Shown: positions 18,137-63,386 of the stretch, piece by piece | Numbering within the stretch: position 1 is the first letter of the stretch | Layout of the letters: each line of letters opens with the position of its first letter | From: an uncultured Pirellula sp. | GTDB lineage: Bacteria; Planctomycetota; Planctomycetia; Pirellulales; PNKZ01 | Reading direction: 5' to 3' | Length of the DNA stretch: 64,000 nt | Assembly (NCBI GenBank): GCA_964633125.1 | Contig: CAZWDN010000002.1 | Span: forward strand, 2,104-66,103 | Notes under the pieces: generated by a model | Told to the model about the DNA's origin: nothing | What the model saw: only the letters and a program-made list of their open reading frames with translations | Database searches by the model: none | Made by a program: the position numbers and the translations under genes

Positions 18137-18460
18137 AAATCGACGTAAGTCCCAAAACTTTCGGGCGACTTACGTCGATTCCGTTTTTCCCCCTGCGCAC
18201 ATAACTCGAGTTATGTGCGCACCCCTTGTGGGTTTTGGGGTTGTGCGCACATAACCGAAGTTATGTGCGCAGGGCTCAGGATGCCGTCGACGTAAGTGCC
18301 CATCGCGAAGAGCGACTTACGTAGGGTGGGTCGAGCAAAGCGAGGCCCACCCTACTGAAGCGAGCGGCACACGGAGTGCGCCTGCAACTTTGAATTGCCA
18401 AAGACCATCTCGCAAAGTAGCGAAATGGTCCGGCAATCTCCAGGCAAGTTTTGGCCGGCC
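18137..18460. repeat. Composite palindromic intergenic element, copy 1 (four-hairpin 187-nt block + variable hairpins + 68-nt tail module)
   Basis: Hairpin A, 18140-18178: TCGACGTAAGTC / GACTTACGTCGA. Hairpin B, 18195-18220: GCGCACATAAC-TCGA-GTTATGTGCGC. A conserved 24-nt spacer follows. Hairpin C, 18245-18270: GCGCACATAAC-CGAA-GTTATGTGCGC. Hairpin D, 18290-18322: ACGTAAGT / ACTTACGT. A GTAGGGTGGG...CCCACCCTAC hairpin lies at 18321-18355 and the tail module at 18393-18460. A second copy lies at 62902-63265. Confidence 0.9.
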
Positions 18461-18544
18461 ATTTTTTTCCTTTACATGGTCGGCGTCGCCGGGTGTAATC
18501 ACCACCTGCCTTCTTTGCATCGCCGCCGCCCCGTTAGAACCTCC

Positions 18545-48684: not shown

Positions 48685-51600
48685 ATGGCCATCAATTCAG
48701 TTCCGACGACGCGACTCAGCAGTCCGTTCGTCACTCAACAGATTCTGTCGCAGATGTCGACGAATCAAGCGAATCTGTTTCGCGTACAGAGTCAGTTGAG
48801 TTCGGGTCGCCGGGTATTGTCGCCGAGCGACGACGCTCCGGCCGCATCGCGCGCGATGGCGTTGCAGTCGTTGTTGGAACGAAAAGGCATCATTCAAGAG
48901 AGCTACGCGACCAATCAGACTTACCTGAATTCCTCGGAAGCGGCTATCGGAAGCGTGGCGACGATGCTCGCCGACGCACGAGCGACGGCAATCAGCATGG
49001 TCGGCGACAACGTTAGTCCCTCCGAGCGCTCCGCCGCCGTGGCCTCCATCGACCTCGCCATCCAACAGTTACTCGATACCAGCAATCAAAAGTTCCGCGA
49101 TCGCTATCTTTTCGCCGGTTCGAAAACGTTGTCGTCTCCTTACGTGAAAACTCAAGACGGCGTGGTCTTTCAAGGCAATGAAGGAGAACTCGTCGCCTTC
49201 TCCGATATCGATCGGCTCTTTCAATCAAACGTGTCGGGAAGTCAAGTCTTCGGCGGGTTCTCGCAGCCCTCGGGCATCGCGACGGATTTGAATCCGGTCT
49301 TAACATGGGATACGCGACTTTCCGACTTGCGCGGCGGCGAGGGGATTCGCACCGGCAGCATATCGGTGAGCGACGGTACGAACGCGCGGACCATCAGCAT
49401 CGCCGGCGCAGCGACGATCGGCGATATCGCACGCTTGCTGGAAGCCAATCCGCCGGGGAATCGGGTCGTCACGGCCCGCGTGACGAGCCGCGGCTTGGAA
49501 GTGTCGCTCGACGGGGGCAATTTGCTGATCGGCGAAGTCGCCGGCGGCACGACTGCGGCGGAACTGGGCATCAAACGCACGATTCCCGCCGGGCCGGGAC
49601 CGGTCGTCGGAGAGGATCTCAATCCGCAGTTGAAACTGACCACCAACTTGACCGACGTGTTCGGCGGTCGTTCACGTACATACGTCAACGCAGACGGTAG
49701 TCGCAACGATCTCATCATCGAGGCCGTAAACTCCGGCGCACAGTACAATGATGTCCAGATCAAGTACGTCGATGACGATTGGTTCCAGTCGACGCCGGGT
49801 CTGACGCAGGGAAACGAAACCGCTCAGTATCTTACGACTGCCGCGGCGGCCGTGTCGTTTCTGAAGTTCCCCGGCCGGCCGGGCCTCGATAACGCGATTC
49901 AACTCACGGCGAATACTCCCGGTGCCGCGTACAACAACGTGACTACGTCGCTCAATGTCCGCGCCGTCGATGGTCTCGGTCCGCAAGTGACGTTCAATGC
50001 GACGACGAATCTCTATTCCATCTCCGTGGAAACCGGCACGACCGTCGGTTCGTTACTGACCTCGATCAACGGCGGAGCGGGGGCATTTAGCGCTTCATTA
50101 ACGCCGACCGGGAACGGGGCGTACGTGCTTACCGCGGCCGACAACAACGTGGCGGCTGGAAACACTTACCTCACCGGTTCCGACGCCGGCACGCTCGTGG
50201 TCCACATCGACCCGACGCATTCGACGGCCAACGACGTCATTGCTGCGATTGCCGCTGAGGGGACGTTCTCGGCTTCGCTCGACCCGAGCGAAGAACAGAA
50301 CGACGGCAACGGTACGGTAAAAGACTCTTTCATCGACGCGTTAGCGGTGGGGACCACTTACGGCGGTGCCGGCGAAAACCTTGATCTCGCAAGCGGCCTC
50401 CAGATCGTCAACGGTTCGAAGACCGTGACGATCGACTTCACCGGTGCAAAGACCGTGGAGGACATGCTCAACGTGATCAACGGTGCCGGCGCCAATGTGC
50501 TCGCCTCGCTAAATGCCGCAGGTACGGGTATCGAGATTCGCTCGCGATTGAGCGGCGCGACGTTTTCCGTCGGCGAGAACGGCGGACGATTGGCCACGCA
50601 GCTCGGCATACGCACCACGACCGAGAATACGGTGCTTACCTCGCTCAACGGCGGGCAGGGAGTGCGCCTTTCAACGACCTCGGACGACTTTTCCGTCACC
50701 AGTCGAAACGGCACGACTTACAACGTCAATCTTTCCCAAGGAAACGCCGCATCGGTTCGTGTTGCGGGGGCGGGGGCGGACAGCGGGCTACTCATCAGCC
50801 GAGTAGATCGCGGAATCGCGGGAAACCAGTTTAGCGTGCAGATCGTCGACTCGGGACTTGGCGGTGGTGATTCCGTCGCACTGGTGGGCAACACGCTCAG
50901 ATTTACGGTCGACGTTGCGGCCGGCTTCACTGCGCAGGAAGCACGGCAGTTACTCGCCAACGATGTGACGCTCGCAGGCCAGTTCAACGCCGTGCTCGAT
51001 AAGTCCATCGACACGACCAATGCCGGCACGGGCAATTTGGCGGCGACGGGCGTTCTTTCCTTTACTAACGGCGCCGGACCGGCGCAAACGATCGGCGACG
51101 TACTGGCGTTGATCAACAACAATCCCGCAAATCTTGCCGGCGACTCCCCGGTGACGGCACGACTCGTGCAAACGGGCAACGGCATCGAATTGATCAATGA
51201 CGGTCCGCCGAGCAGCGGTAGCCTGAGCATAACGCGCATCGGTACGAGTTCGGCGGCCGAAGATCTAGGCCTAGTTAATTCTGCCGACAGTGCGAGCGGC
51301 GTCGTGGTGGTGGGAAATACTGCGAAGTCGACGCTGACGCTCGCCGGAGCGGACAACGACTTGGTGATTTCGGCCCGTGGCAGCGGTGCAACGCTAAACG
51401 GAGTAACGATTCACTTTGCCGACGACGGCGTGCCGGGCAACAACTCCGTGGCCTACAATACGACGACCAGAACGTTGACGTTCGACGTCGATCCTGCGAC
51501 GACCACGGCCCAGGATATCGTCGATCTACTTGCCGGCGACCCGCGATTCGTCGCCAGTCTCGCAAGTTCCGACGGCGGAGCGGCGAACAGCGGTGCCGGA

Positions 51601-52017
51601 TTCCTCGGAACGCTTCCGGCCGATTCGACGCTCGCAGACGGCACTTCCGACGTTCTCACCGGTCGGGATGCCAACCCCCAACAGGTCGACGGCATTTTCG
51701 GCACGCTGATCGCGATGCGCGCCGCGATTTCCGCCAACGATACGGCGGCCTTGCAAAAGGCCGTCGCATCCCTAGATGCTAATTCCACCACCTTGAGCTT
51801 TGCCCGCGCCGAGCTCGGCACTCGCCTGCAGGGGCTCGATGTGCTCCAGGATCGAATGAGCTCCGAGACGATCTCGTTGAAGGGATCGCTGTCCGGTGAA
51901 ATTGACGTGGACTTTGTTTCCGCAGTTTCCGAGATGTCGACGCGTCAGGCGTCATTCGACGCGGCGCTGAAAGTCTCGTCGTTGATCGCAAAAACGACGT
52001 TGCTCGACTATCTCTAG
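48685..52017 (+). CDS. flgL: Flagellar hook-associated protein 3 FlgL, giant form (1110 aa)
   Basis: The N-terminus is collinear with FlgL (LSSGRRVLSPSDDAPAASRAMAL; RDRYLFAGSKT). A flagellin-type C-terminal helix is present (RAELGTRLQGLDVLQDRMSSETISL...). It sits after flgK. About 850 aa of repeat-containing insert lie between the conserved termini. Confidence 0.8.
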   Translation: MAINSVPTTRLSSPFVTQQILSQMSTNQANLFRVQSQLSSGRRVLSPSDDAPAASRAMALQSLLERKGIIQESYATNQTYLNSSEAAIGSVATMLADARATAISMVGDNVSPSERSAAVASIDLAIQQLLDTSNQKFRDRYLFAGSKTLSSPYVKTQDGVVFQGNEGELVAFSDIDRLFQSNVSGSQVFGGFSQPSGIATDLNPVLTWDTRLSDLRGGEGIRTGSISVSDGTNARTISIAGAATIGDIARLLEANPPGNRVVTARVTSRGLEVSLDGGNLLIGEVAGGTTAAELGIKRTIPAGPGPVVGEDLNPQLKLTTNLTDVFGGRSRTYVNADGSRNDLIIEAVNSGAQYNDVQIKYVDDDWFQSTPGLTQGNETAQYLTTAAAAVSFLKFPGRPGLDNAIQLTANTPGAAYNNVTTSLNVRAVDGLGPQVTFNATTNLYSISVETGTTVGSLLTSINGGAGAFSASLTPTGNGAYVLTAADNNVAAGNTYLTGSDAGTLVVHIDPTHSTANDVIAAIAAEGTFSASLDPSEEQNDGNGTVKDSFIDALAVGTTYGGAGENLDLASGLQIVNGSKTVTIDFTGAKTVEDMLNVINGAGANVLASLNAAGTGIEIRSRLSGATFSVGENGGRLATQLGIRTTTENTVLTSLNGGQGVRLSTTSDDFSVTSRNGTTYNVNLSQGNAASVRVAGAGADSGLLISRVDRGIAGNQFSVQIVDSGLGGGDSVALVGNTLRFTVDVAAGFTAQEARQLLANDVTLAGQFNAVLDKSIDTTNAGTGNLAATGVLSFTNGAGPAQTIGDVLALINNNPANLAGDSPVTARLVQTGNGIELINDGPPSSGSLSITRIGTSSAAEDLGLVNSADSASGVVVVGNTAKSTLTLAGADNDLVISARGSGATLNGVTIHFADDGVPGNNSVAYNTTTRTLTFDVDPATTTAQDIVDLLAGDPRFVASLASSDGGAANSGAGFLGTLPADSTLADGTSDVLTGRDANPQQVDGIFGTLIAMRAAISANDTAALQKAVASLDANSTTLSFARAELGTRLQGLDVLQDRMSSETISLKGSLSGEIDVDFVSAVSEMSTRQASFDAALKVSSLIAKTTLLDYL

Positions 52018-52230
52018 TCGTAATCAATCTCCGCGCATGTTGCGCGGCAAGTTCTACGGCCTGGGGAATGCATGACGAACGCGCGGTGTGGGAAAGGGAT
52101 TCCTCGCGTTCTAGCAGCTGCGGCAGTTGCAACGGTATTACTATCGAGGCGCGGCCAAGTCGGCCGAAACTAAGTTTGTAGAGACGTCGGCTCCGACGGC
52201 TTGTCGGTCACGCTCAAAAGGGTGCGCACC

Positions 52231-52671
52231 ATGCAGATTCGCACGACGCGATTCGGAACGCTCACGGTGGAAACAGACGACTTGCTGTTGTTTCCCGCCG
52301 GTTTACTCGGGCTCGAAGACTGCCGCCAATGGGTCTTTTTGACGGATGAGGCGAACGATGCGTTGGGGTGGCTGCAAAGCACCGCTCGGCCGGAACTGGC
52401 GTTTGCGGTCGTCAGTCCGCGACGCTTTGTGCCTGACTATCGCTTTCGCACTTTTCGCGAAGAGTTGGCGCCGTTGGAGCTGAATGGACTGGAAGATGCG
52501 CAGGTGCTCGTCACCGTGGCTCGCCACGACGGCGCCTTGACGCTCAACCTTCGCGCTCCAATCCTGATTAACGCCGTCACGCGAATGGGGCGTCAGATCG
52601 CCACGAACGACGATCAGCCGCTGCAATTTGTAATCCCGTCAACGCCCGCGCGATTGAAGAAGATCGCATAA
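52231..52671 (+). CDS. fliW: Flagellar assembly factor FliW
   Basis: MQIRTTRFGTLTVETDDLLLFPAGLLGLEDCRQWVFL ... LNLRAPILIN is typical of FliW. It lies directly upstream of csrA. Confidence 0.9.
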   Translation: MQIRTTRFGTLTVETDDLLLFPAGLLGLEDCRQWVFLTDEANDALGWLQSTARPELAFAVVSPRRFVPDYRFRTFREELAPLELNGLEDAQVLVTVARHDGALTLNLRAPILINAVTRMGRQIATNDDQPLQFVIPSTPARLKKIA

Positions 52672-52811
52672 CCGCGCTTTGGTTCGGCAGGTTGAATTCT
52701 CGTTGAGGAAACTGCCGAACACGACTTGTGCCACGCTTGCGTCGCCGGCAAAGTCTGCCGCGAGGGGATCGCGGGGCGTTCACTGGTTCGCAGCTTTGGA
52801 AGGAGCCGACG

Positions 52812-53039
52812 ATGCTTGTATTGTCGAGGCAACGCGACGAAAGCATCATTATCGGTGATAACATTGTTATCACCATCGTCGATATTCGCGGAGATAAGGT
52901 ACGTCTCGGCATCAACGCCCCGACGGAAATCCCCGTGCATCGGCAAGAGGTGTACGAAGCCATCCAACGCGAAAACCTGCGCGCCGGGCGTCTCGAGCCG
53001 AAGGATGCTCGTAACGTGGGCCGCGGCGAAGTGAAATAG
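52812..53039 (+). CDS. csrA: Carbon storage regulator CsrA (long, FliW-partnered type)
   Basis: [51 protein letters not shown]. It is 75 aa with a C-terminal extension, and GGAAGGAG lies upstream of the ATG. Confidence 0.95.
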
Positions 53040-53097
53040 CGCCAATTCGAGCGCTTCGGCACATTCCGTCGAGCCGGCGGATCGTCCCGGCCGCCGT

Positions 53098-53120
53098 GCG
53101 ACACATATATATTGTGTCGC
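53098..53120. other. 23-nt AT-centred palindrome downstream of csrA
   Basis: GCGACACA-TATATAT-TGTGTCGC has perfect 8-bp arms. It stands out against the GC-rich background and has no downstream T-run. Confidence 0.5.
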
Positions 53121-53602
53121 CGCGGCAATTCGGTAGCGGTGAGTCTGATGCCGGCCGTTCCCGTCACATCGCCGTCGCTCTGTTCCCCCGCGGCTCGCAA
53201 GTTTCCCCGTGCGGCTACCCGCAACATTCCGTCGGCGCCGGTCTTTGCGCGCTTGGGGATCTCCGAAGTTGCGAAGTGCGTAGCTTCGCTTCCGCTCCGT
53301 TAGTCTGTCGTTTATTCCGGCTATGACGGATGGGCGACAAGGCGAAGAAAAAGAAAATTACGAGCGATTAAATAACGACCTATGGTATCAGTGACGTGCA
53401 AGTCCCGAGTTAGGTAATCGCCGCAAATTGCGGCAACCGCGCCGAAAGACGTGCTACGTTTGACGAGATTGATTCCGTAAGGTTTGCGGCTTTGAGAGGT
53501 CGAGGCCGCGAGACGAATAGCAAGCCGGTCCGGGGAGTCCTCCCTGCATCCAGACGGGCTTGGCAGCATAACCGAGTCCTATTTTTTTGAGGGGTGAGTT
53601 AG

Positions 53603-56600
53603 ATGACCCGTATTAACACGAATTTGAGTTCGCTCACCGCTCAACACAGCTTGAAGCGGTCGAACTCCTCTTTGGAAACGTCGCTGACGCGGCTTTCGAC
53701 CGGCTTGCGCATCAACACGGGTAAGGATGACCCGGCCGGTTTGATCGCGAGCGAACAGCTCCGATCGGAAATCGTTTCCATCGGCCAATCGATCAAGAAC
53801 AGCGAACGGGCCGGCAATATTATTGCCACGGCCGACGCCGCCCTCGGCGAAGTAAGCTCGCTGCTTAACGACGTTCGCAGCTTGGTTCAATCGTCGGCCA
53901 ATAAGGGAGCCGTCTCGGCTTCGGAAATCGCCGCTAACCAAGTTCAAGTCGACAACGCGCTCGACGCCATCACGCGTATCGCTCAAACCACGGTCTTCGC
54001 CGGGCAGAAACTGCTCAACGGCTCGAAGAGCTTCTCGGTTAGCGGTACGCTGGGCTCGTTCAACAGCCCGACCGACATCACGATCAATTCGTTTGATCCG
54101 TCGCTGCACACGGCCAGCGCCAATAACGACGTCAGCCTCAGCGTGACGCAAGAAGCCACGAAGAAGAGCGTCAGCTTCAAGGGCACCGACTTCAACACGA
54201 GCACGTCGAACAGCTTGCTCGACCTTTCGGTCGGCACCTCGACACGCACCAACTCGACCCTCATCACCAACGACTTCAGCGTCGCCAATGCAACGAGCAG
54301 CTTGGGTTCGCTTTCGACCGGGTCGACGCGTTATACCCGCGTGATCGAAGGTGGCGCGACGGGCTTGGCCGATTTGGCCGGTGCGGGCTCGGAAACCATC
54401 ACGCTCGACGTCACCGGCAACCTCGGCACGGAATCGATCACTGTGAACGTCGCCGCGTTCAAGGCCGATACGCAGGTGCTCACCGACGCGATCAATGCGA
54501 CGTCGGCGACGACCGGCGTGTTCGCTTCGGGTTCGGGTGCCGGCGGTGACCTGACCTTGACGTCGACTCTCGTCGGTACGTCGGGTACTACGGCCACGCT
54601 TAACGCCACCGCGGGTCAAGGTGCTCAAGAAACGGTTCGTACTCTAGATCCGGGCGCCGGTTCGAGCTATAGCTCGTTGGCTGCCGCCGGTGCCGGTCAC
54701 GTCATTACGTTTGACCTGACGGGCGCCTTGGGTACCGCGACGGGTCTTTCCGTCAACTTGCAAGCTTTGAAGGCCGACAGCGATGCTTTGGTCGACGTCA
54801 TTAACGCCGCCTCGGGTACCACGGGCATCACCGCCACGGGTAGCGGCGTCGACGGCACGATCACCTTGACCAACTCCACCGGAGGCACCGGCGCGATTAC
54901 CTTCGCGAACGTTGCGGGCGGCGGCGGTGCGGTCGCCGGCGACGTCACGTTGTTCAATGCAGCCATCACTGCAGGAACGCAAACCCTGGGCGATACCGAC
55001 GTCACCGAGTTCAACGCTGCGATTACCGGCTCGGCAGTCACCGCCGCGACCAACGGCGCCCTCGGCACGAAGACGACCGTGTTCACGATCACCGGTAACA
55101 AGGGCTCGGCCGATATCTCGACCGCCGCTCTCGCCGCCGGCGGCCTCACCGGTAACGACGTGATCATCAACAACGACTTCAGCACCAACACGGGCATCAC
55201 GGCTTTCGCCGCCTTGATCAACTCGCGTACCGACACCACCGGCGTCGTCGCGAGCATCAACGGCTCGGGCAACTTGGTGCTCACGTCGCAAGGCGTCGGC
55301 AGCACGTCGCTGGCCAACATCACGGTCGGCACCGCGGGTGCGGATCAAACGTTGATCAACTCGGCTTCGACGAAGACCACGACGACGGGAACCGACGGTA
55401 CGTCGAACACGACGACTCTCGAACTCATCGGCGATCTCGGACGCTCGGTGATCACCATCAACAACGATGCCGTCATCAACGACAGCACCGTCCTGCGGAA
55501 CGCGATCAACGCCGTCACGTCGCAAACCGGCATCACCGCCACCGGCGGCGGATTCGGAACCGACGTCAGCCTGAGTGCTTCGAAGTACGGGGCCGCGGGC
55601 GTCGTCACCGTCAACGCTCTCGCCGCTTCCAACTCCGCCGACATCACGCTGCTGAATGCGGCCGGCACGCGGGTTTCGGTCGACGGCCAGAATGCCACGG
55701 GAACGATTAGCCACGGCAACGGCAGCGGCAACTTCACGGCCGCCGGCGAACGACTGGCCTACACCGACTCGTCGATCAGCCTCGAAGCCACGATTGATCC
55801 CACGCTCACGCCGAGCGTTCGGGCGTCGCGGACCATTCAGGATACGACGGCCGGAGCGGGCGGTTTGGACAGCCTCACCGGCGCCGGAACCGATACCATC
55901 AGCTTCACGCTGACCGGCGTCGTCAACGGTGCTCAAGTTTCGACCTCGATCAGCAACGTCAACGTTGCCGCTCTCAAGTCGGACAGCCGCTACCTCGCCG
56001 ACCTCATCAACGCCACGAGCTCCAGCTCCGGCGTGCGAGCCTCGACGACGGGCGCCTCGGGCAACATCGTGCTGGAATCGACGACGAACGGTTCGGCCGG
56101 TCAAGTGGCGATTACCGCCACCGCCGCGACGCAAGCCGGCGACGTGGCGATCTTCAACAACGCCGACACGTTCACGAGCATCGTCGCGGGAGCCAACCCC
56201 GCCGTGTCGAACAACTTCGACGTCACCGGCGGCGCCTTGTTCCAAATCGGCCCCTCGGTGAACTACGCGAACCAGGTCAACATCAACATCACCTCGCTCG
56301 ACTTGTCGACGCTGGGTCGTGACTACACGACGACGGGAAACAAGGGCCTCTCCGCCTTGAAGACCGGCGGCAGCGACTCGCTCGACAAGGCCGACCTCAC
56401 CGATGCGGCGGCCATCATCGAGCAAGCGATCAGCCAGGTCGCTACCCTTCGCGGTAAGTTGGGCGCCATCCAGAAGAACGCCATCGAAAGCAATATCCGC
56501 AGCTTGCAAACGTCGCTCGAACAAGTGACGGCCGCGGAAAGCAGCATTCGTGACGCCGACTTCGCGGTGGAAACGGCCAACCTCACCCGCTCGCAGATTC

Positions 56601-56677
56601 TCGTGCAAGCCGGTACCAACGTCTTGGCCTTGGCCAACCAAGCTCCGCAGAACGTTCTGTCGCTGCTCGGTCGGTAA
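53603..56677 (+). CDS. fliC: Flagellin, giant form (1024 aa) with repeat-built central region
   Basis: The N-terminus reads MTRINTNLSSLTAQHSLKRSNSSLETSLTRLSTGLRINTGKDDPAGLIASEQL. The C-terminus reads LRGKLGAIQKNAIESNIRSLQTSLEQVTAAESSIRDADFAVETANLTRSQILVQAGTNVLALANQAPQNVLSLL. GAGGGG lies 8 nt upstream of the ATG, and a strong terminator follows the gene. Confidence 0.92.
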   Translation: MTRINTNLSSLTAQHSLKRSNSSLETSLTRLSTGLRINTGKDDPAGLIASEQLRSEIVSIGQSIKNSERAGNIIATADAALGEVSSLLNDVRSLVQSSANKGAVSASEIAANQVQVDNALDAITRIAQTTVFAGQKLLNGSKSFSVSGTLGSFNSPTDITINSFDPSLHTASANNDVSLSVTQEATKKSVSFKGTDFNTSTSNSLLDLSVGTSTRTNSTLITNDFSVANATSSLGSLSTGSTRYTRVIEGGATGLADLAGAGSETITLDVTGNLGTESITVNVAAFKADTQVLTDAINATSATTGVFASGSGAGGDLTLTSTLVGTSGTTATLNATAGQGAQETVRTLDPGAGSSYSSLAAAGAGHVITFDLTGALGTATGLSVNLQALKADSDALVDVINAASGTTGITATGSGVDGTITLTNSTGGTGAITFANVAGGGGAVAGDVTLFNAAITAGTQTLGDTDVTEFNAAITGSAVTAATNGALGTKTTVFTITGNKGSADISTAALAAGGLTGNDVIINNDFSTNTGITAFAALINSRTDTTGVVASINGSGNLVLTSQGVGSTSLANITVGTAGADQTLINSASTKTTTTGTDGTSNTTTLELIGDLGRSVITINNDAVINDSTVLRNAINAVTSQTGITATGGGFGTDVSLSASKYGAAGVVTVNALAASNSADITLLNAAGTRVSVDGQNATGTISHGNGSGNFTAAGERLAYTDSSISLEATIDPTLTPSVRASRTIQDTTAGAGGLDSLTGAGTDTISFTLTGVVNGAQVSTSISNVNVAALKSDSRYLADLINATSSSSGVRASTTGASGNIVLESTTNGSAGQVAITATAATQAGDVAIFNNADTFTSIVAGANPAVSNNFDVTGGALFQIGPSVNYANQVNINITSLDLSTLGRDYTTTGNKGLSALKTGGSDSLDKADLTDAAAIIEQAISQVATLRGKLGAIQKNAIESNIRSLQTSLEQVTAAESSIRDADFAVETANLTRSQILVQAGTNVLALANQAPQNVLSLLGR

Positions 56678-56708
56678 GCCTCGCAGGTTTGAATTCGTAT
56701 CTAACCAC

Positions 56709-56746
56709 GGTAGGCGAGGTACTCCACCTCGCCTACCGTTTTTTTA
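56709..56746 (+). terminator. Rho-independent terminator of fliC
   Basis: A perfect 12-bp stem (GGTAGGCGAGGT-ACTCC-ACCTCGCCTACC) is followed by G + T7 + A. Confidence 0.85.
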
Positions 56747-56766
56747 TCCCCCAGGCGACTCGGGAC

Positions 56767-56774
56767 GCCGATAA
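56767..56774 (+). promoter_or_regulatory. Exact sigma-28-type -10 box (GCCGATAA) upstream of fliD; no canonical -35
   Basis: An 8/8 match to the FliA -10 consensus sits between the fliC terminator and the fliD ATG, 107 nt upstream of the ATG. No TAAA lies at the canonical spacing. An isolated 8-mer match is expected about once or twice by chance in a window of this size. Confidence 0.2.
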
Positions 56775-56880
56775 CGGATAAGGAGACTTTGCCGTTCGGC
56801 TTGCCGGCCGGCAGTGCTTGCAGGCTTTCGGTCTGCGGGCGTTCGCTCTGTTCGTACTACGTGTTCGCGGAACCTTGCAT

Positions 56881-59610
56881 ATGGCGACCGTCGCCGCAGG
56901 CACCGGGCTTGTCTCGGGCCTTAATTATACGCAGATCGCCGACTCGCTCATCACGCTGGATAAGGCTCCGATCGATCAGCTCACGACTGATCTCAATAAT
57001 CGCAAAGGCGCTCAGGCCGCGTATACCGGCCTCTCCGCAACGCTGCTCTCGCTTTCGCTCTCCGTGTCGACGCTCGGTCGGTCCAGTACGCTCGATTCGC
57101 GCGTTGCCGGCAGTTCCAACGCTTCGCTCGTAAGCGCCAGGGCCGATACGACGGCAGTTCTCGGCTCCTACAATTTCCGGCCCGTTCGGTTGGCGCAAAC
57201 TCAACGCTTTACCTCCGCGGGCTTTGCGGATCTCGGCACGGCGAAGGTCGGCGCGGGAACCATCTCGATCAAGCGCGGCGGCTTTGTCGCCGCCGACACG
57301 TCGCTCGATGCGCTCAACGGCGGCGCCGGCGTCGCTCGCGGCAAGATTCGCATCACCGATCGCAGCGGCGTGGCGACCGTCGTCGATCTGAGCGGCACGC
57401 GCACCGTCGGCGACGTGCTCAAGACCATCAATGATAACGGCATCGCCGCCGTGACCGCCTCCGTCCGCGGTGACGCGATCGTCCTCACCGATCAATCGGG
57501 TTCGACCGCGAGCGAACTAAAGGTTCAAGAACTCGGCGGCGGCCGCACCGCCGCTGACCTCGGGATTCTGGGATCGGTTGCGGCGAATGAAAAAGTCGGT
57601 ACCGACGTCGTCAAGCTCGGAAGCGATTTGCGTCTCTCGCATCTGAACGACGGACTGGGCGTGCGCACCAACGGCACACAGGACGACCTTCGTATCACGC
57701 TCAAAGACGGCGGTACGATCGACGTCAAGCTTGCATCCGCGAAGACGATTCAAGACGTCGTAACGGCCATCAACGGCGACAGTGAAAATAGCAACCGAGT
57801 CACCGCTTCGATCTCCGGCGGCGGCGATGCGCTTGTACTTACGGATACCACGGGCGGCGGCGGAACGCTCGCGGTAGCGGCCCTCAACGGCAGCAAAGCG
57901 GCCGCGGATCTCGGCATTCTCGGTTCCGAGCAATCCGGCGGCGTGCTCACGGGCAAGCGAGTTCTGGCCGGGCTCAATTCCGTCCTTCTGAAGAATCTTA
58001 ACGGCGGCTCCGGCATCTCGATACCCGGCCAAGTACAACTCACCGATCGCAGCGGAGCCACCGCCGCGATCGACCTCTCCGGCGCCGGAAGCCTCGGCGA
58101 AGTGATCGACGCGATTAATGCCGCCGGACTCGGCATCAAAGCCGCTCTCAACGACCAAGGGCACGGCCTCACGCTCACCGACACGACCGGTTCGTCGGCC
58201 TCGAATCTCATCGTCGCCGACCTTTCGGGCGGCACGACCGCCGCGGATCTGAACATCGACGGGAGCGTGGCGGCGACGACGATCAAATCGGGCGATTTGC
58301 ACCGCGCCTACATCAACGAAAATACGTCGCTCGGCAGCCTCGGCAACGGGGCGGGCATTCGCGACGGGCAGATCAAGATCAAAGACAAAGCCGGCAATTC
58401 GACCGTGCTGATCATCAACGGCGACAACTACAAGACTCTCGGCGACTTGATCACCGGTATTAATGCGGGCAGTGCGCAAGTCACGGCATCAATCAATGCC
58501 ACGGGCGACGGCTTGCTGATTTCCGACATCTCCGGCGGAGCCGGCTCGTTGACGGTCGAAGACATCGGCTCAAGCAAGTCTGCCGCCGATCTACGCATCG
58601 CCGGAACCGGCTCCCCGACGATCGACGGCGCTTTCGTCGATCGCGTCGAAATCGATGCCGACGACACGCTTAACGACGTGATCGCGAAAATCGGCTCCAG
58701 CGGCGCTCCGATTAACGCGTCGTTTTTCAATGTCGGCGGCACCGACGGCTTCAAACTCCTGGTCAGTTCGAAAAAGGGGGGCGAAGTCGGTCGCCTACTC
58801 ATCGATTCCGGTACGACCGGTTTGAATCTTAATCAGTCCCAAGAAGGGCTCGACGCCGTCGTTCAACTCAGCGGTAACGGCTCCGCGCCCGTCGTGTTTG
58901 CCTCGGCGACTAACTCCTTCAGCTCCGTCGTCGCCGGATTGTCCGTCGATATCACCGGCGTTTCGGCGTCATCCGTAACGATTAACGTCGAACAAAGTTC
59001 CGATGCAATCGTCGATTCCGTGACTGCGTTCGTGAAGAGCTTCAACACCATCAGCGATTCGCTTGCCAAGCAGACGAAGTTCGACACGACCACCAACACC
59101 TCGGCAATTCTGCAAGGAGATCAAACGGCGATCGCCTTGCAAAGTGCGTTGCTGTCGTTCGTGTCCAAGCGGTACGGCAACGGCGGCAACGCATTTCGCA
59201 CGTTTAGCCAACTCGGCATCACGCTCTCCGGCGGTCAACTTACCGTCGATGAGAGCAAGCTTCGCGCGCAAGTTTCCGCCGATCCGGCCGCCGTCAAAGA
59301 CTTCTTCGGCGCGACGAATGTCGGCGCCTCGGCGCAAATCGGCAAAGTCATCAAAGGCTACACCGACGCCGCCGTGGGCACGCTCTTCAATAAGATCGAC
59401 TCGCTCGATAGACAACAAGAATCGCTCCAAGCTCGAATCGACAAGATCACCAAGTCCGTGGAAGCCAAACGCAATCGTATTCTCAACCAGTTTCTCGTGC
59501 TTGAGAAAACGCTGGCGACCTTGCAATCGCAACAAACGTCGCTCAACAGTCTTGCCTCTCTCGCCGCTTCGACGTCCTCGAGTTCCAGTTCGTCGAAATC
59601 CGGCAACTAA
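56881..59610 (+). CDS. fliD: Flagellar filament cap protein FliD (HAP2), enlarged (909 aa)
   Basis: The N-terminus reads MATVAAGTGLVSGLNYTQIADSLITLDKAPIDQLTTDL. A C-terminal FliD domain is present (FNTISDSLAKQTKFD...AILQGDQTAIALQS...LSQLGITLSGGQLTVDESKL...). Four tandem ~110-aa repeats lie in between, and the protein ends in a poly-Ser tail. Confidence 0.88.
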   Translation: MATVAAGTGLVSGLNYTQIADSLITLDKAPIDQLTTDLNNRKGAQAAYTGLSATLLSLSLSVSTLGRSSTLDSRVAGSSNASLVSARADTTAVLGSYNFRPVRLAQTQRFTSAGFADLGTAKVGAGTISIKRGGFVAADTSLDALNGGAGVARGKIRITDRSGVATVVDLSGTRTVGDVLKTINDNGIAAVTASVRGDAIVLTDQSGSTASELKVQELGGGRTAADLGILGSVAANEKVGTDVVKLGSDLRLSHLNDGLGVRTNGTQDDLRITLKDGGTIDVKLASAKTIQDVVTAINGDSENSNRVTASISGGGDALVLTDTTGGGGTLAVAALNGSKAAADLGILGSEQSGGVLTGKRVLAGLNSVLLKNLNGGSGISIPGQVQLTDRSGATAAIDLSGAGSLGEVIDAINAAGLGIKAALNDQGHGLTLTDTTGSSASNLIVADLSGGTTAADLNIDGSVAATTIKSGDLHRAYINENTSLGSLGNGAGIRDGQIKIKDKAGNSTVLIINGDNYKTLGDLITGINAGSAQVTASINATGDGLLISDISGGAGSLTVEDIGSSKSAADLRIAGTGSPTIDGAFVDRVEIDADDTLNDVIAKIGSSGAPINASFFNVGGTDGFKLLVSSKKGGEVGRLLIDSGTTGLNLNQSQEGLDAVVQLSGNGSAPVVFASATNSFSSVVAGLSVDITGVSASSVTINVEQSSDAIVDSVTAFVKSFNTISDSLAKQTKFDTTTNTSAILQGDQTAIALQSALLSFVSKRYGNGGNAFRTFSQLGITLSGGQLTVDESKLRAQVSADPAAVKDFFGATNVGASAQIGKVIKGYTDAAVGTLFNKIDSLDRQQESLQARIDKITKSVEAKRNRILNQFLVLEKTLATLQSQQTSLNSLASLAASTSSSSSSSKSGN

Positions 59611-62856: not shown

Positions 62857-62862
62857 CCGGCT

Positions 62863-63265
62863 GTAGGGAACGCCTCGGAGGGCGCTCCCTACGGAGCCTG
62901 CAAATCGACGTAAGTCCCCATTCGCGTGCGCGACTTACGTCGACTCTCATTTTCGCGCTGCGCACATAACTCGAGTTATGTGCGCACCCCTTGTGGGTTT
63001 TGGGGTTGTGCGTAGATAACCGAAGTTATGTGCGCAGGCCGTTTTCGACCGTCGACGTAAGTAGGGAACACGAAGAACTACTTACGTCCAAGTAGTCCGC
63101 TGCCGGAGCGGCGGAAATGCGCGTTCTCGGTCGATGTCGATAGCCGTCGCGCACGACGGCGGGTGCCGTTTTGCCGCTACGTAGCGGCGGCCTGCTCAAT
63201 TGCCAAAGATCATCCCGCAACGTAGCGAATCCGGCGGGCGATCTCCAGGCAACTTTTGGCCGGCC
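62863..63265. repeat. Composite palindromic intergenic element, copy 2
   Basis: A GTAGGGAACGCC...GGCGCTCCCTAC hairpin lies at 62863-62892. Hairpin A is at 62905-62943, B at 62960-62985, C at 63010-63035 (2 mismatches in the 5' arm) and D at 63054-63088. A variable hairpin-rich insert follows, then the tail module at 63198-63265. The 187-nt A-D block is collinear with 18137-18323 without indels. Confidence 0.9.
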
Positions 63266-63386
63266 TTGCCGCTCCCGCATCTTGATGGCCTTGAAATTTC
63301 TTGCACTACGGAGGCGCGCCGGATAGATTCGCCCTGAATACGCCGTTCTCTCTAGGTCGTTGAGCACGTCATTTTCGGTGGAAAAC

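Follow-up and report, generated by a model that had tools for sequence, protein, structure and literature searches.

Which kind of element is present at positions 62863 to 63265 of the 64,000-nt stretch of uncultured Pirellula DNA analysed here (the window), where a hairpin-rich intergenic sequence has a similar counterpart elsewhere in the same stretch, and what could have kept stems and spacing alike in the two while the remainder changed? We refer to the sequence at 62863-63265 as copy 2 and to its counterpart as copy 1. The results described below make it fairly probable that copy 2 belongs to a family of composite repeats, non-coding and rich in hairpins, that is confined to one lineage, dispersed over intergenic regions and comparable to BIMEs, ERIC sequences or miniature inverted-repeat transposable elements (MITEs).

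The two copies in the window

An earlier note on this DNA, made by reading the sequence alone, described a 187-nt block of four hairpins, A to D, that aligns between the two copies without an indel. In agreement with this, the core of copy 2 (62902-63088) and that of copy 1 (18137-18323) are identical at 153 of 187 positions with zero indels. Within it, 79 of the central 81 nt are identical, the figure given before, and both differences are located in hairpin C (GCGTAG versus GCGCAC). The view that these two changes are uncompensated holds for one of them, which results in a G.G mismatch in copy 2, but not for the other, which results in a T.G wobble. This TAG/GTG form of hairpin C recurs at L011, L020, L029, L033 and L049 (L numbers designate the loci examined). 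The stem of hairpin D is indeed extended to 11 bp in copy 2 (GACGTAAGTAG/CTACTTACGTC), and computation of the identity between the tails (63198-63265 and 18393-18460) gives the same 58 of 68 positions that had been counted by hand. The zones between hairpin D and the tail are unrelated, as had been seen, and differ in length (copy 2, 109 nt; copy 1, 69 nt).

The distance between the copies is 44,765 bp for the core, as stated before, and 44,805 bp for the tail. Each copy lies between two plus-strand genes, also as described: copy 2 follows a Zincin_1 gene and precedes the gene of a small membrane protein, and copy 1 follows a small lipoprotein gene and precedes the gene of an NRAMP transporter. 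The pattern of hairpin B/C and that of the A/D arm match the window at copies 1 and 2 only; shuffled sequence gives about 0-1 matches.

A family of dispersed composite repeats

When one genome per species was searched for exact matches to hairpin B, a single true one appeared, in a Pirellula sp. metagenome-assembled genome (MAG; L003, the same MAG as L048). Of the 33 loci in metagenome contigs that exactly match 19 nt of the apex, 22 proved to be true copies. Extra copies were found through the neighbouring proteins of orthologous loci (L039, L040 and L044-L050). Beyond the window, the family has about 25 further copies in metagenome contigs and one in the Pirellula MAG. The element is a non-coding, intergenic repeat of 330-560 bp that is scattered through the DNA of a narrow group of Pirellula-like planctomycetes. 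Phage collections, plasmid collections and viral contigs gave zero matches to it, and no planctomycete repeat of this kind is described in the literature searched.

Nearly all copies have the order hairpin A, linker, hairpin B, apex, hairpin C, linker, hairpin D, variable zone, tail. The family consensus of hairpin A is AAATCGACGTAAGT..ACTTACGTCGA, which hairpin D resembles, and that of hairpin B is TGCGCAsATAAC-nnnn-GTTATsTGCGCA, which hairpin C resembles. The core of ~190 nt is near-palindromic, the centres of its A, B, C and D palindromes being 48-50 bp apart, and it is followed by a variable zone of 30-250 nt and by the 68-nt tail, which ends in TTTTGGCCGGCC. Despite differing loop and linker sequences, the offsets of the arms from the apex (-81, -54, +45 and +72) are identical in ~14 copies. 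The tail is found as conserved sequence blocks in at least 17 copies, and in the 332 kb examined the arms, hairpins B/C and the tail never occur free of the composite. The invariance of the apex in copies found with it is due to its use as the search key; in copies found independently (L046 and L048) 1-2 of the 19 positions differ.

Three variants of this plan exist: one with the outer arms only (L007, L010, L016 and L044-L048), one with the inner arms only (L023 and L036), and one with a third half-hairpin in place of the C-D linker and as long as that linker (L006, L014, L026, L027 and L050). In L016 (1-2594, element on the minus strand) the outer-arms-only copy has a degenerate tail and is directly followed by an open reading frame (ORF) of 430 aa. 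This ORF, named by eye from its N-terminal motif as an IS4/Tn5-like transposase, is probably an unrelated insertion sequence (IS).

Conserved stems and spacing, variable loops and linkers

Stems and spacing of the element are kept while its loops and linkers drift. Module identities computed across 11 standard copies are 93% for the A/D stems and 88% for the B/C stems, versus 44-64% for loops and linkers and 37% for the flanks, so that the split noticed between the two window copies extends to the family. The same split recurs among true orthologues at the site upstream of the NRAMP gene (the NRAMP site).

For hairpins B and C, 94% of the cells are paired, the observed covariation score was reached by 0 of 500 shuffles, and slid controls collapse. 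Compensatory changes in hairpin B consist of exchanges between C:G and G:C (9 versus 13 copies) and between C:G and U:A (2 copies), and both arms agree in 22 of 23 cases. The check for compensatory changes that had been proposed thus turned out positive for B and C, at two positions each, but many G.G mismatches occur in C, and the A and D arms are almost invariant and therefore uninformative on pairing. Left to itself, RNAalifold recovers hairpins B and C and a small hairpin in the apex. Local hairpins fit the alignment no better and no worse than long-range pairing, in which the 5' arm of A would join the 3' arm of D and the 3' arm of A the 5' arm of D; at minimum energy the core folds into one rod whose loop is the apex (z = -9.5 and -8.5 on the two strands). 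The B/C covariation is real but modest, and cannot separate RNA from single-stranded DNA or from palindromic protein sites homogenised by conversion. From these results we infer a constraint on the fold of one strand, either as separate hairpins or as one long rod with an apex loop. The tail as a structured RNA was rejected, as RNAalifold gave -4.4 kcal/mol and zero covariation.

Presence/absence turnover and gene conversion

The repeat is dispersed, and individual sites have gained it. It occupies the NRAMP site in the window, L020, L039 and L040 (NRAMP at least 95% identical), and this site is empty in L043, L053, L042, L051 and L052 (NRAMP 85, 83, 82, 76 and 74% identical, respectively). 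The comparison with relatives that had been recommended therefore does reveal polymorphism, the site being filled in three close relatives and empty in five more distant ones. The empty sites keep an ordinary terminator hairpin, a T-run and the promoter TTTACA-17 nt-TGTAAT; at filled sites the right end of the element adjoins the T-run of the former terminator. The simplest history of this site is a gain in the lineage of the window. At the empty site of L051 (2700-2780) a different palindromic repeat (CCACTGGCGGC..GCCGCCAGTGG) is present twice, so that this spot collects different repeats in different lineages.

The site of copy 2 is filled in the orthologues L049 and L050, whose downstream proteins are 98% and 87% identical. 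In GCA_049840675.1 (L043:4023-4163) Zincin_1 is followed directly by the glycosyltransferase/LPG-synthase/PMT/lipoprotein/NRAMP block; as Zincin_1 and NRAMP are 44 kb apart in the window, copy 2 (region 62857-63386) is located at a synteny breakpoint relative to L043.

Segments are also exchanged between copies by gene conversion. Copy 1 and its orthologues differ in B/C type (CAC versus CAG/TAG), C-D linker, D loop and inner module, which is a hairpin named REP2 in copy 1 and a GTAGTCCGCC doublet in L020 and L039, even though its tail and downstream flank are ~97% identical to theirs. Likewise, L050 has at the copy-2 site a different inner module and the TAC/GTA form of hairpin C. This double change is present at four different loci (L006, L008, L046 and L050) that apparently belong to one lineage, and at all sampled loci of that lineage. 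Differing inner modules at orthologous sites, together with a double change shared by four loci, indicate that gene conversion has acted besides selection. This is in line with the earlier proposal that selection or gene conversion, and not recent duplication alone, shaped the two window copies. Short-read contigs break inside the B-apex-C segment in L017, L025, L027, L033, L037, L038, L049 and L050, as is expected of a multi-copy repeat.

REP hairpins in and beside the element

The occurrence of a GTAG hairpin 5' of block A in copy 2 and 3' of block D in copy 1 had been taken as a sign that modules were shuffled. No module has moved, however: the two hairpins belong to different families of repetitive extragenic palindromic (REP) sequences, GTAGGGAACGCC..GGCGCTCCCTAC (REP1, 62863-62892) and GTAGGGTGGG..CCCACCCTAC (REP2, 18321-18355), and are present in permissive zones. 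Five non-orthologous copies have REP1 at 119-121 nt 5' of their apex, and REP1 accompanies this subfamily of the element. This constant offset indicates that whole composites, REP included, were copied to unrelated loci. REP1 also occurs solitary, 10 kb from any element, in L044 and L048, and REP1 doublets are present far from any element in the same two (L044:472-545).

The GTAGTCCGCC REP doublet (REPIN) module of copy 2 is also found in L009, L012, L013, L020 and L039, and elsewhere the variable zone contains other REPs instead, or a gene (L007 and L044-L048). The lineage has at least four GTAG-headed REP/REPIN families (GTAGGGAACGCC.., GTAGGGTGGG.., GTAGTCCGCC.. and GTAGGCACACTCCGTGTGCC); those of GTAGGGAACGCC.., GTAGGGTGGG.., GTAGTCCGCC.. 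and GTAGGCACAC.. are located in and beside the element. In the window, REP/REPIN hairpins adjoin the element only (62863-62892, 18321-18355, 63091-63197 and 18362-18392); further ones are present in L006 and L050. The A/D arms (TCGACGTAAGT) and the B/C arms (TGCGCAsATAAC) are without the unpaired GTAG/CGTC head that the accessory REP1-REP4 have. The gene tables of the loci examined contain no Y1 transposase or RAYT.

Gene context and possible action in transcripts

Across ~20 loci every class of gene orientation is observed: convergent genes are commonest (six loci), co-directional genes occur in either sense, and divergent genes were seen once. The conjecture that copies always lie between same-strand genes, which would have suggested a transcript-level function, consequently fails. 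The element has a gene 3' end on its upstream side in 11 of 16 loci and on its downstream side in 10 of 15, the usual distance to a stop codon being 5-40 nt, and in several convergent gene pairs the space between the genes is filled entirely by the element. In L012, and at a locus with an embedded helix-turn-helix (HTH) gene described below (the HTH locus), the stop codon is a TAA inside an arm. Since most copies adjoin gene 3' ends and some hold a stop codon, an effect like that of REP, BIME or ERIC sequences is most likely. The repeat would be transcribed with its neighbours as a 3' untranslated region, in which its stable structures could block 3' exonucleases or terminate transcription; the enzyme that copies the element may in addition make use of the same fold or of the arm sequences. 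The element probably acts as a 3'-end structure when transcribed with its neighbours.

Several other roles were considered and rejected. The element is not a regulatory region of the downstream gene, as in many copies the adjoining gene is convergent and turns its 3' end towards the element. Hairpins A and C are not intrinsic terminators, as their T-runs are displaced. The tail contains TTGCCA, 17 nt and TAGCGA, in which the final T is absent and the spacing is 14-19 nt across copies; because hexamers and spacing vary, the tail was discarded as a sigma-70, sigma-54 or ECF promoter, and no canonical sigma-70 promoter is present on either strand of the element. A minus-strand peptide of the tail (GRPK.AW..LWQ) looked conserved, but 1-nt indels between tails rule out coding, and a conserved start codon is absent.

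A TTGACA-like hexamer (TTGCAT, TTTACA, TGGACA or TTGACC) is present 10-12 nt past GGCCGGCC, often after CAAAAC, in the window (63266-63300) and in L003, L007, L008, L009, L012, L013, L017, L023 and L032, even before convergent genes. At NRAMP this hexamer is the -35 box of the host promoter, which is also found at the empty sites.

Points against a dispersed repeat under structural constraint, and small RNA genes as an alternative

A number of observations weigh against the reading of the element as a dispersed, structurally constrained repeat. With respect to structure, the compensated changes are confined to two positions in each of B and C, hairpin C has an uncompensated G.G mismatch in 8 copies, ~15 G.U versus ~10 A.C pairs do not pick out the transcribed strand, and the tail is without structural signal. 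No canonical intrinsic terminator is present; a scan detected no conserved one in either window copy, the T-runs lying ~5 nt past stems A and C. With respect to mobility, the unit as a whole is without terminal inverted repeats, its left end being AAATCGACGTAAGT and its right end TTTTGGCCGGCC, and no transposase, RAYT or other candidate enzyme adjoins any copy. No target-site duplication is visible at the single filled/empty comparison, that of NRAMP, which spans species at most 85% identical in NRAMP, so that the exact junctions are blurred. Finally, most copies came from the exact apex 19-mer, which biases the sampled diversity to close relatives.

We regard it as unlikely that the copies are stand-alone genes for structured small RNAs that have their own promoter and use the apex as a recognition loop; at the HTH locus, for example, transcription would start at the tail and run along the minus strand. 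The strongly conserved hairpins, the covariation in B/C and the conserved apex would suit such RNAs. At the HTH locus, moreover, the tail is upstream and the core downstream of a minus-strand gene, so that an ORF-less copy resembles a leader joined to a 3' untranslated region. The family would be a new one, since no Rfam family matches: the window gave zero matches at gathering thresholds, and at E<=10 both copies gave noise only (bit scores 11-16 versus thresholds of 34-99). Against small RNA genes, neither strand has a canonical sigma-70 promoter or intrinsic terminator. The tail is also without covariation, the G.U and A.C counts favour neither strand, and copies abut or overlap gene ends in every orientation. 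Furthermore, presence/absence turnover and the carrying along of REPs are typical of selfish repeats.

A TerS-like gene inside one conserved copy and possible binding of protein to duplex DNA

At L007, L010 and the orthologues L044-L048 a gene of 132 aa is located exactly in the variable zone, on the minus strand of the element. Its protein is lineage-specific and resembles terminase small subunits (TerS). Six contigs, which represent at least four distinct genomes, have the gene in this place, with the tail upstream and the core immediately downstream of it, and the synteny Peptidase_M32, TerS-like gene, argB is kept. The protein matches the profile of PHROG 4102 (E = 2e-12) and, weakly, Pfam Sf6_terminase, and the best PDB fold match of its model (pLDDT 70) is Sf6 gp1 (probability 0.99, TM-score 0.43). 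Its C-terminal 20 residues vary freely, but the final Ser-Thr and stop are invariant because they are encoded by the element arm TCGACGTAA. The superfamily of TerS-like proteins contains 445 clusters at E<=1e-10; the ortholog group found here is narrow, with 3 clusters at E<=1e-30. Neither tblastn nor short blastn detected a remnant of the gene in ORF-less copies, and we therefore rejected the view that these are deletion derivatives of the TerS-like copy. The gene is a lead and not evidence of function.

It seems improbable to us that the element is an array of protein-binding sites in duplex DNA, on which a nucleoprotein complex would be formed by the TerS-like protein or by a tyrosine recombinase acting on dif-like hairpins B/C, the stems being half-sites. 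Hairpin B (62959-62986 and 18194-18221) has the 11+6+11 geometry of a Xer core site, and its arms match those of the E. coli dif sequence at 8 of 11 and 6 of 11 positions. Hairpin B, though, is present twice per element and in many elements, whereas a Xer/dif site is a 28-bp site with a single copy near the terminus. A dif site could not be predicted for Planctomycetes (Kono et al., PMC3025954). Binding would explain why the A/D arms are conserved in sequence almost without covariation, why spacing is rigid and linker sequence free, and why the tail consists of conserved blocks without structure. By contrast, CAC and CAG variants occur side by side in one element and yet the two arms of the same hairpin mostly match each other (in B, in 22 of 23 cases), which favours pairing over half-site identity, and the outer-arms-only and inner-arms-only variants keep the complementarity of arms across B-C. 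The position of the TerS-like gene in the six contigs points to binding, but the superfamily is large and generic, and near ORF-less copies there is no TerS-like or recombinase gene, just as there is no gene remnant inside them.

The same B/C change at all four sampled loci of one lineage is also consistent with binding. If the palindromes and the tail were the cognate DNA sites of the TerS-like protein, and the ORF-less copies recognition sites spread over the chromosome, which we think very unlikely, protein and sites would co-evolve, and this would explain the matching changes in B/C arms at these loci. Such sites could be pac-like, for packaging or transfer of DNA, or serve in organisation of the chromosome.

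That the two direct copies 44.8 kb apart result from local segmental duplication, the alternative that the earlier note held capable of overturning its reading, or from an assembly artefact, or that they are the attL and attR of a 44.8-kb island, has next to no probability. Independent assemblies contain homologous copies at ~20 loci that are unrelated to one another, and the two window copies have unrelated flanks. Between them lie core genes (NRAMP, rml genes, PolX, FeoB, MutS, flagellar genes and IspG) that are syntenic in relatives with an empty NRAMP site. The multi-locus family and the empty sites refute segmental duplication and island att sites alike.

Comparison with known repeats and significance

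The reading of the element as a dispersed composite repeat invites comparison with known families. Like BIMEs and the RIP/RIB elements of enterobacteria, the element is built between genes as a mosaic whose palindromic units alternate in orientation and are joined by linkers of fixed length, has a conserved non-palindromic segment between two inverted hairpins, and prefers gene 3' ends; an association with GTAG-type REPs is another shared trait (PMC3733652). The mosaic plan is thus present, as a resemblance of build only. The element differs in that its A/D and B/C hairpins are without GTAG/CGTC tag and are never free units, and in being much longer and rigid, with a one-sided 68-nt tail. By inspection, the IHF consensus WATCAANNNNTTR is absent from both strands of the apex CCCCTTGTGGGTTTTGGGGTTG.

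ERIC/IRU and Correia (NEMIS) elements are long imperfect palindromes or MITEs that act in transcripts. In common with these, the core is predicted to fold as one long imperfect hairpin, insertions are found at fixed internal points, copies are located in intergenic DNA that is probably transcribed, and the copies in L007 and L016 resemble an inverted-repeat pair around an inner segment. The element differs from them in having hairpins instead of single terminal repeats and an asymmetric tail outside the palindrome, and it shows neither sequence similarity to them nor, at the NRAMP site with its blurred junctions, a visible target-site duplication. The presence/absence polymorphism of a MITE is found at NRAMP (three assemblies filled, five empty), but inverted arms bracket the inner B-apex-C segment only (L007 and L016).

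Conserved stems, looser loops, doublets and dispersal within a lineage are shared with the REP/REPIN-RAYT system (PMC3733652; also the work of Bertels and Rainey). The element is nevertheless an ordered composite of 330-560 bp, whereas a REP unit has 20-40 nt; its arms are without GTAG head; the arms, B/C and the tail are never solitary in the 332 kb; and no RAYT gene is seen in the sequence examined. PATEs, non-autonomous derivatives of IS200/IS605 (PMC6006769), are alike in the near-identical hairpins A and D near the ends of the core, the absence of terminal inverted repeats and the strand polarity; the element differs in that no TnpA/TnpB partner was seen, no conserved cleavage tetranucleotide was identified at its boundaries, and a tail extends beyond D. 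BOX elements of Streptococcus pneumoniae (boxA-boxB(n)-boxC) have a similar ordered modular build with a variable number of inner modules, to which the third half-hairpin past C in some copies of the element corresponds, but belong to another phylum, have no sequence relationship to the element, and consist of direct modules where the element is palindromic. As the element is without the tag and the free units of REP/REPIN and without the terminal inverted repeats of a classical MITE around the whole unit, shows no visible duplication and matches no Rfam family, we do not place it in any named family.

To our knowledge, structured repeats of the dispersed kind have been well characterised in proteobacteria, firmicutes and cyanobacteria, and scarcely so in Planctomycetota. 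The present element is unusually large and ordered, with a constraint clearly split between stems and spacing on the one hand and loops and linkers on the other, and it shows gene conversion from copy to copy in direct examples. With 44.8 kb between them and the same orientation, the two window copies provide substrates for deletion or rearrangement. The element breaks short-read assemblies, and recognising it helps binning and assembly. Being located over gene ends and beside promoters, it may shape mRNA 3' ends or the expression of neighbours such as the NRAMP metal transporter, and the embedded TerS-like gene provides a concrete lead to a partner protein.

Features of the element and of its surroundings

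Table 1. Positions of the parts of copies 2 and 1 in the window, and of the TerS-like gene in other loci.
Feature	Position	Strand	Remarks
REP1, GTAG-headed REP hairpin (GTAGGGAACGCC TCGG AGGGCGCTCCCTAC)	62863..62892	+	6 nt past the Zincin_1 stop codon
Hairpin A: AAA + TCGACGTAAGTC, 15-nt loop, GACTTACGTCGA; 12-bp stem	62902..62943	+	arms 93%, loop 62% identical across copies
A-B linker, fixed length, variable sequence, T-rich and A-rich subfamilies	62944..62958	+	44% identity between copies
Hairpin B: TGCGCACATAAC TCGA GTTATGTGCGCA, perfect 28-nt palindrome	62959..62986	+	compensatory changes
Asymmetric apex/spacer CCCCTTGTGGGTTTTGGGGTTG, 22 nt; 4-5-bp CCCC/GGGG mini-hairpin possible	62987..63008	+	
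Hairpin C: TGCGTAGATAAC CGAA GTTATGTGCGCA; one T.G wobble, one G.G mismatch	63009..63036	+	
C-D linker (GGCCGTTTTCGACCG), length conserved; equal-length third half-hairpin instead in some copies	63037..63051	+	
Hairpin D: TCGACGTAAGTAG, loop, CTACTTACGTCCA; 11-bp stem in copy 2	63052..63090	+	
Variable zone of copy 2: REP doublet (REPIN), decayed, belonging to the GTAGTCCGCC family; contains GCCGTCG-CGCA-CGACGGC and GCCGCTACGTAGCGGC	63091..63197	+	
Tail of copy 2: AATTGCCAAAGA..CAyCCCGCA..TAGCGAA..ATCTCCAGGC..TTTTGGCCGGCC; non-palindromic right end	63198..63265	+	
Core of copy 1 (A, B, apex, C, D)	18137..18323	+	
REP2, hairpin with GTAG head (GTAGGGTGGGTCGAG..CCCACCCTAC), within the copy-1 variable zone; overlaps the last D-arm bases	18321..18355	+	
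Tail of copy 1	18393..18460	+	~97% identical to orthologues L020 and L039
Host NRAMP promoter: TTTACA, 17 nt, TGTAAT; 10 nt past the tail, outside the element	18471..18499	+	also at all five empty sites
TerS-like HTH gene	L007:412-813	minus	
TerS-like HTH gene	L044:10001-10399; L046:10001-10396; L048:10001-10348		

Two minor observations concern other repeated words. Near the start of ffh (SRP54) two TCAACGTAAGT words, each one mismatch off the A/D arm, lie 14 nt apart (L044:18655-18679); the pair is kept in three genomes (L044, L045 and L048), and these may be chance matches. In the flagellar region of the window (48685-59610) ORFs of 1110 aa and 930 aa contain internal imperfect repeats of 40-57 nt (families D1, D4 and D9).

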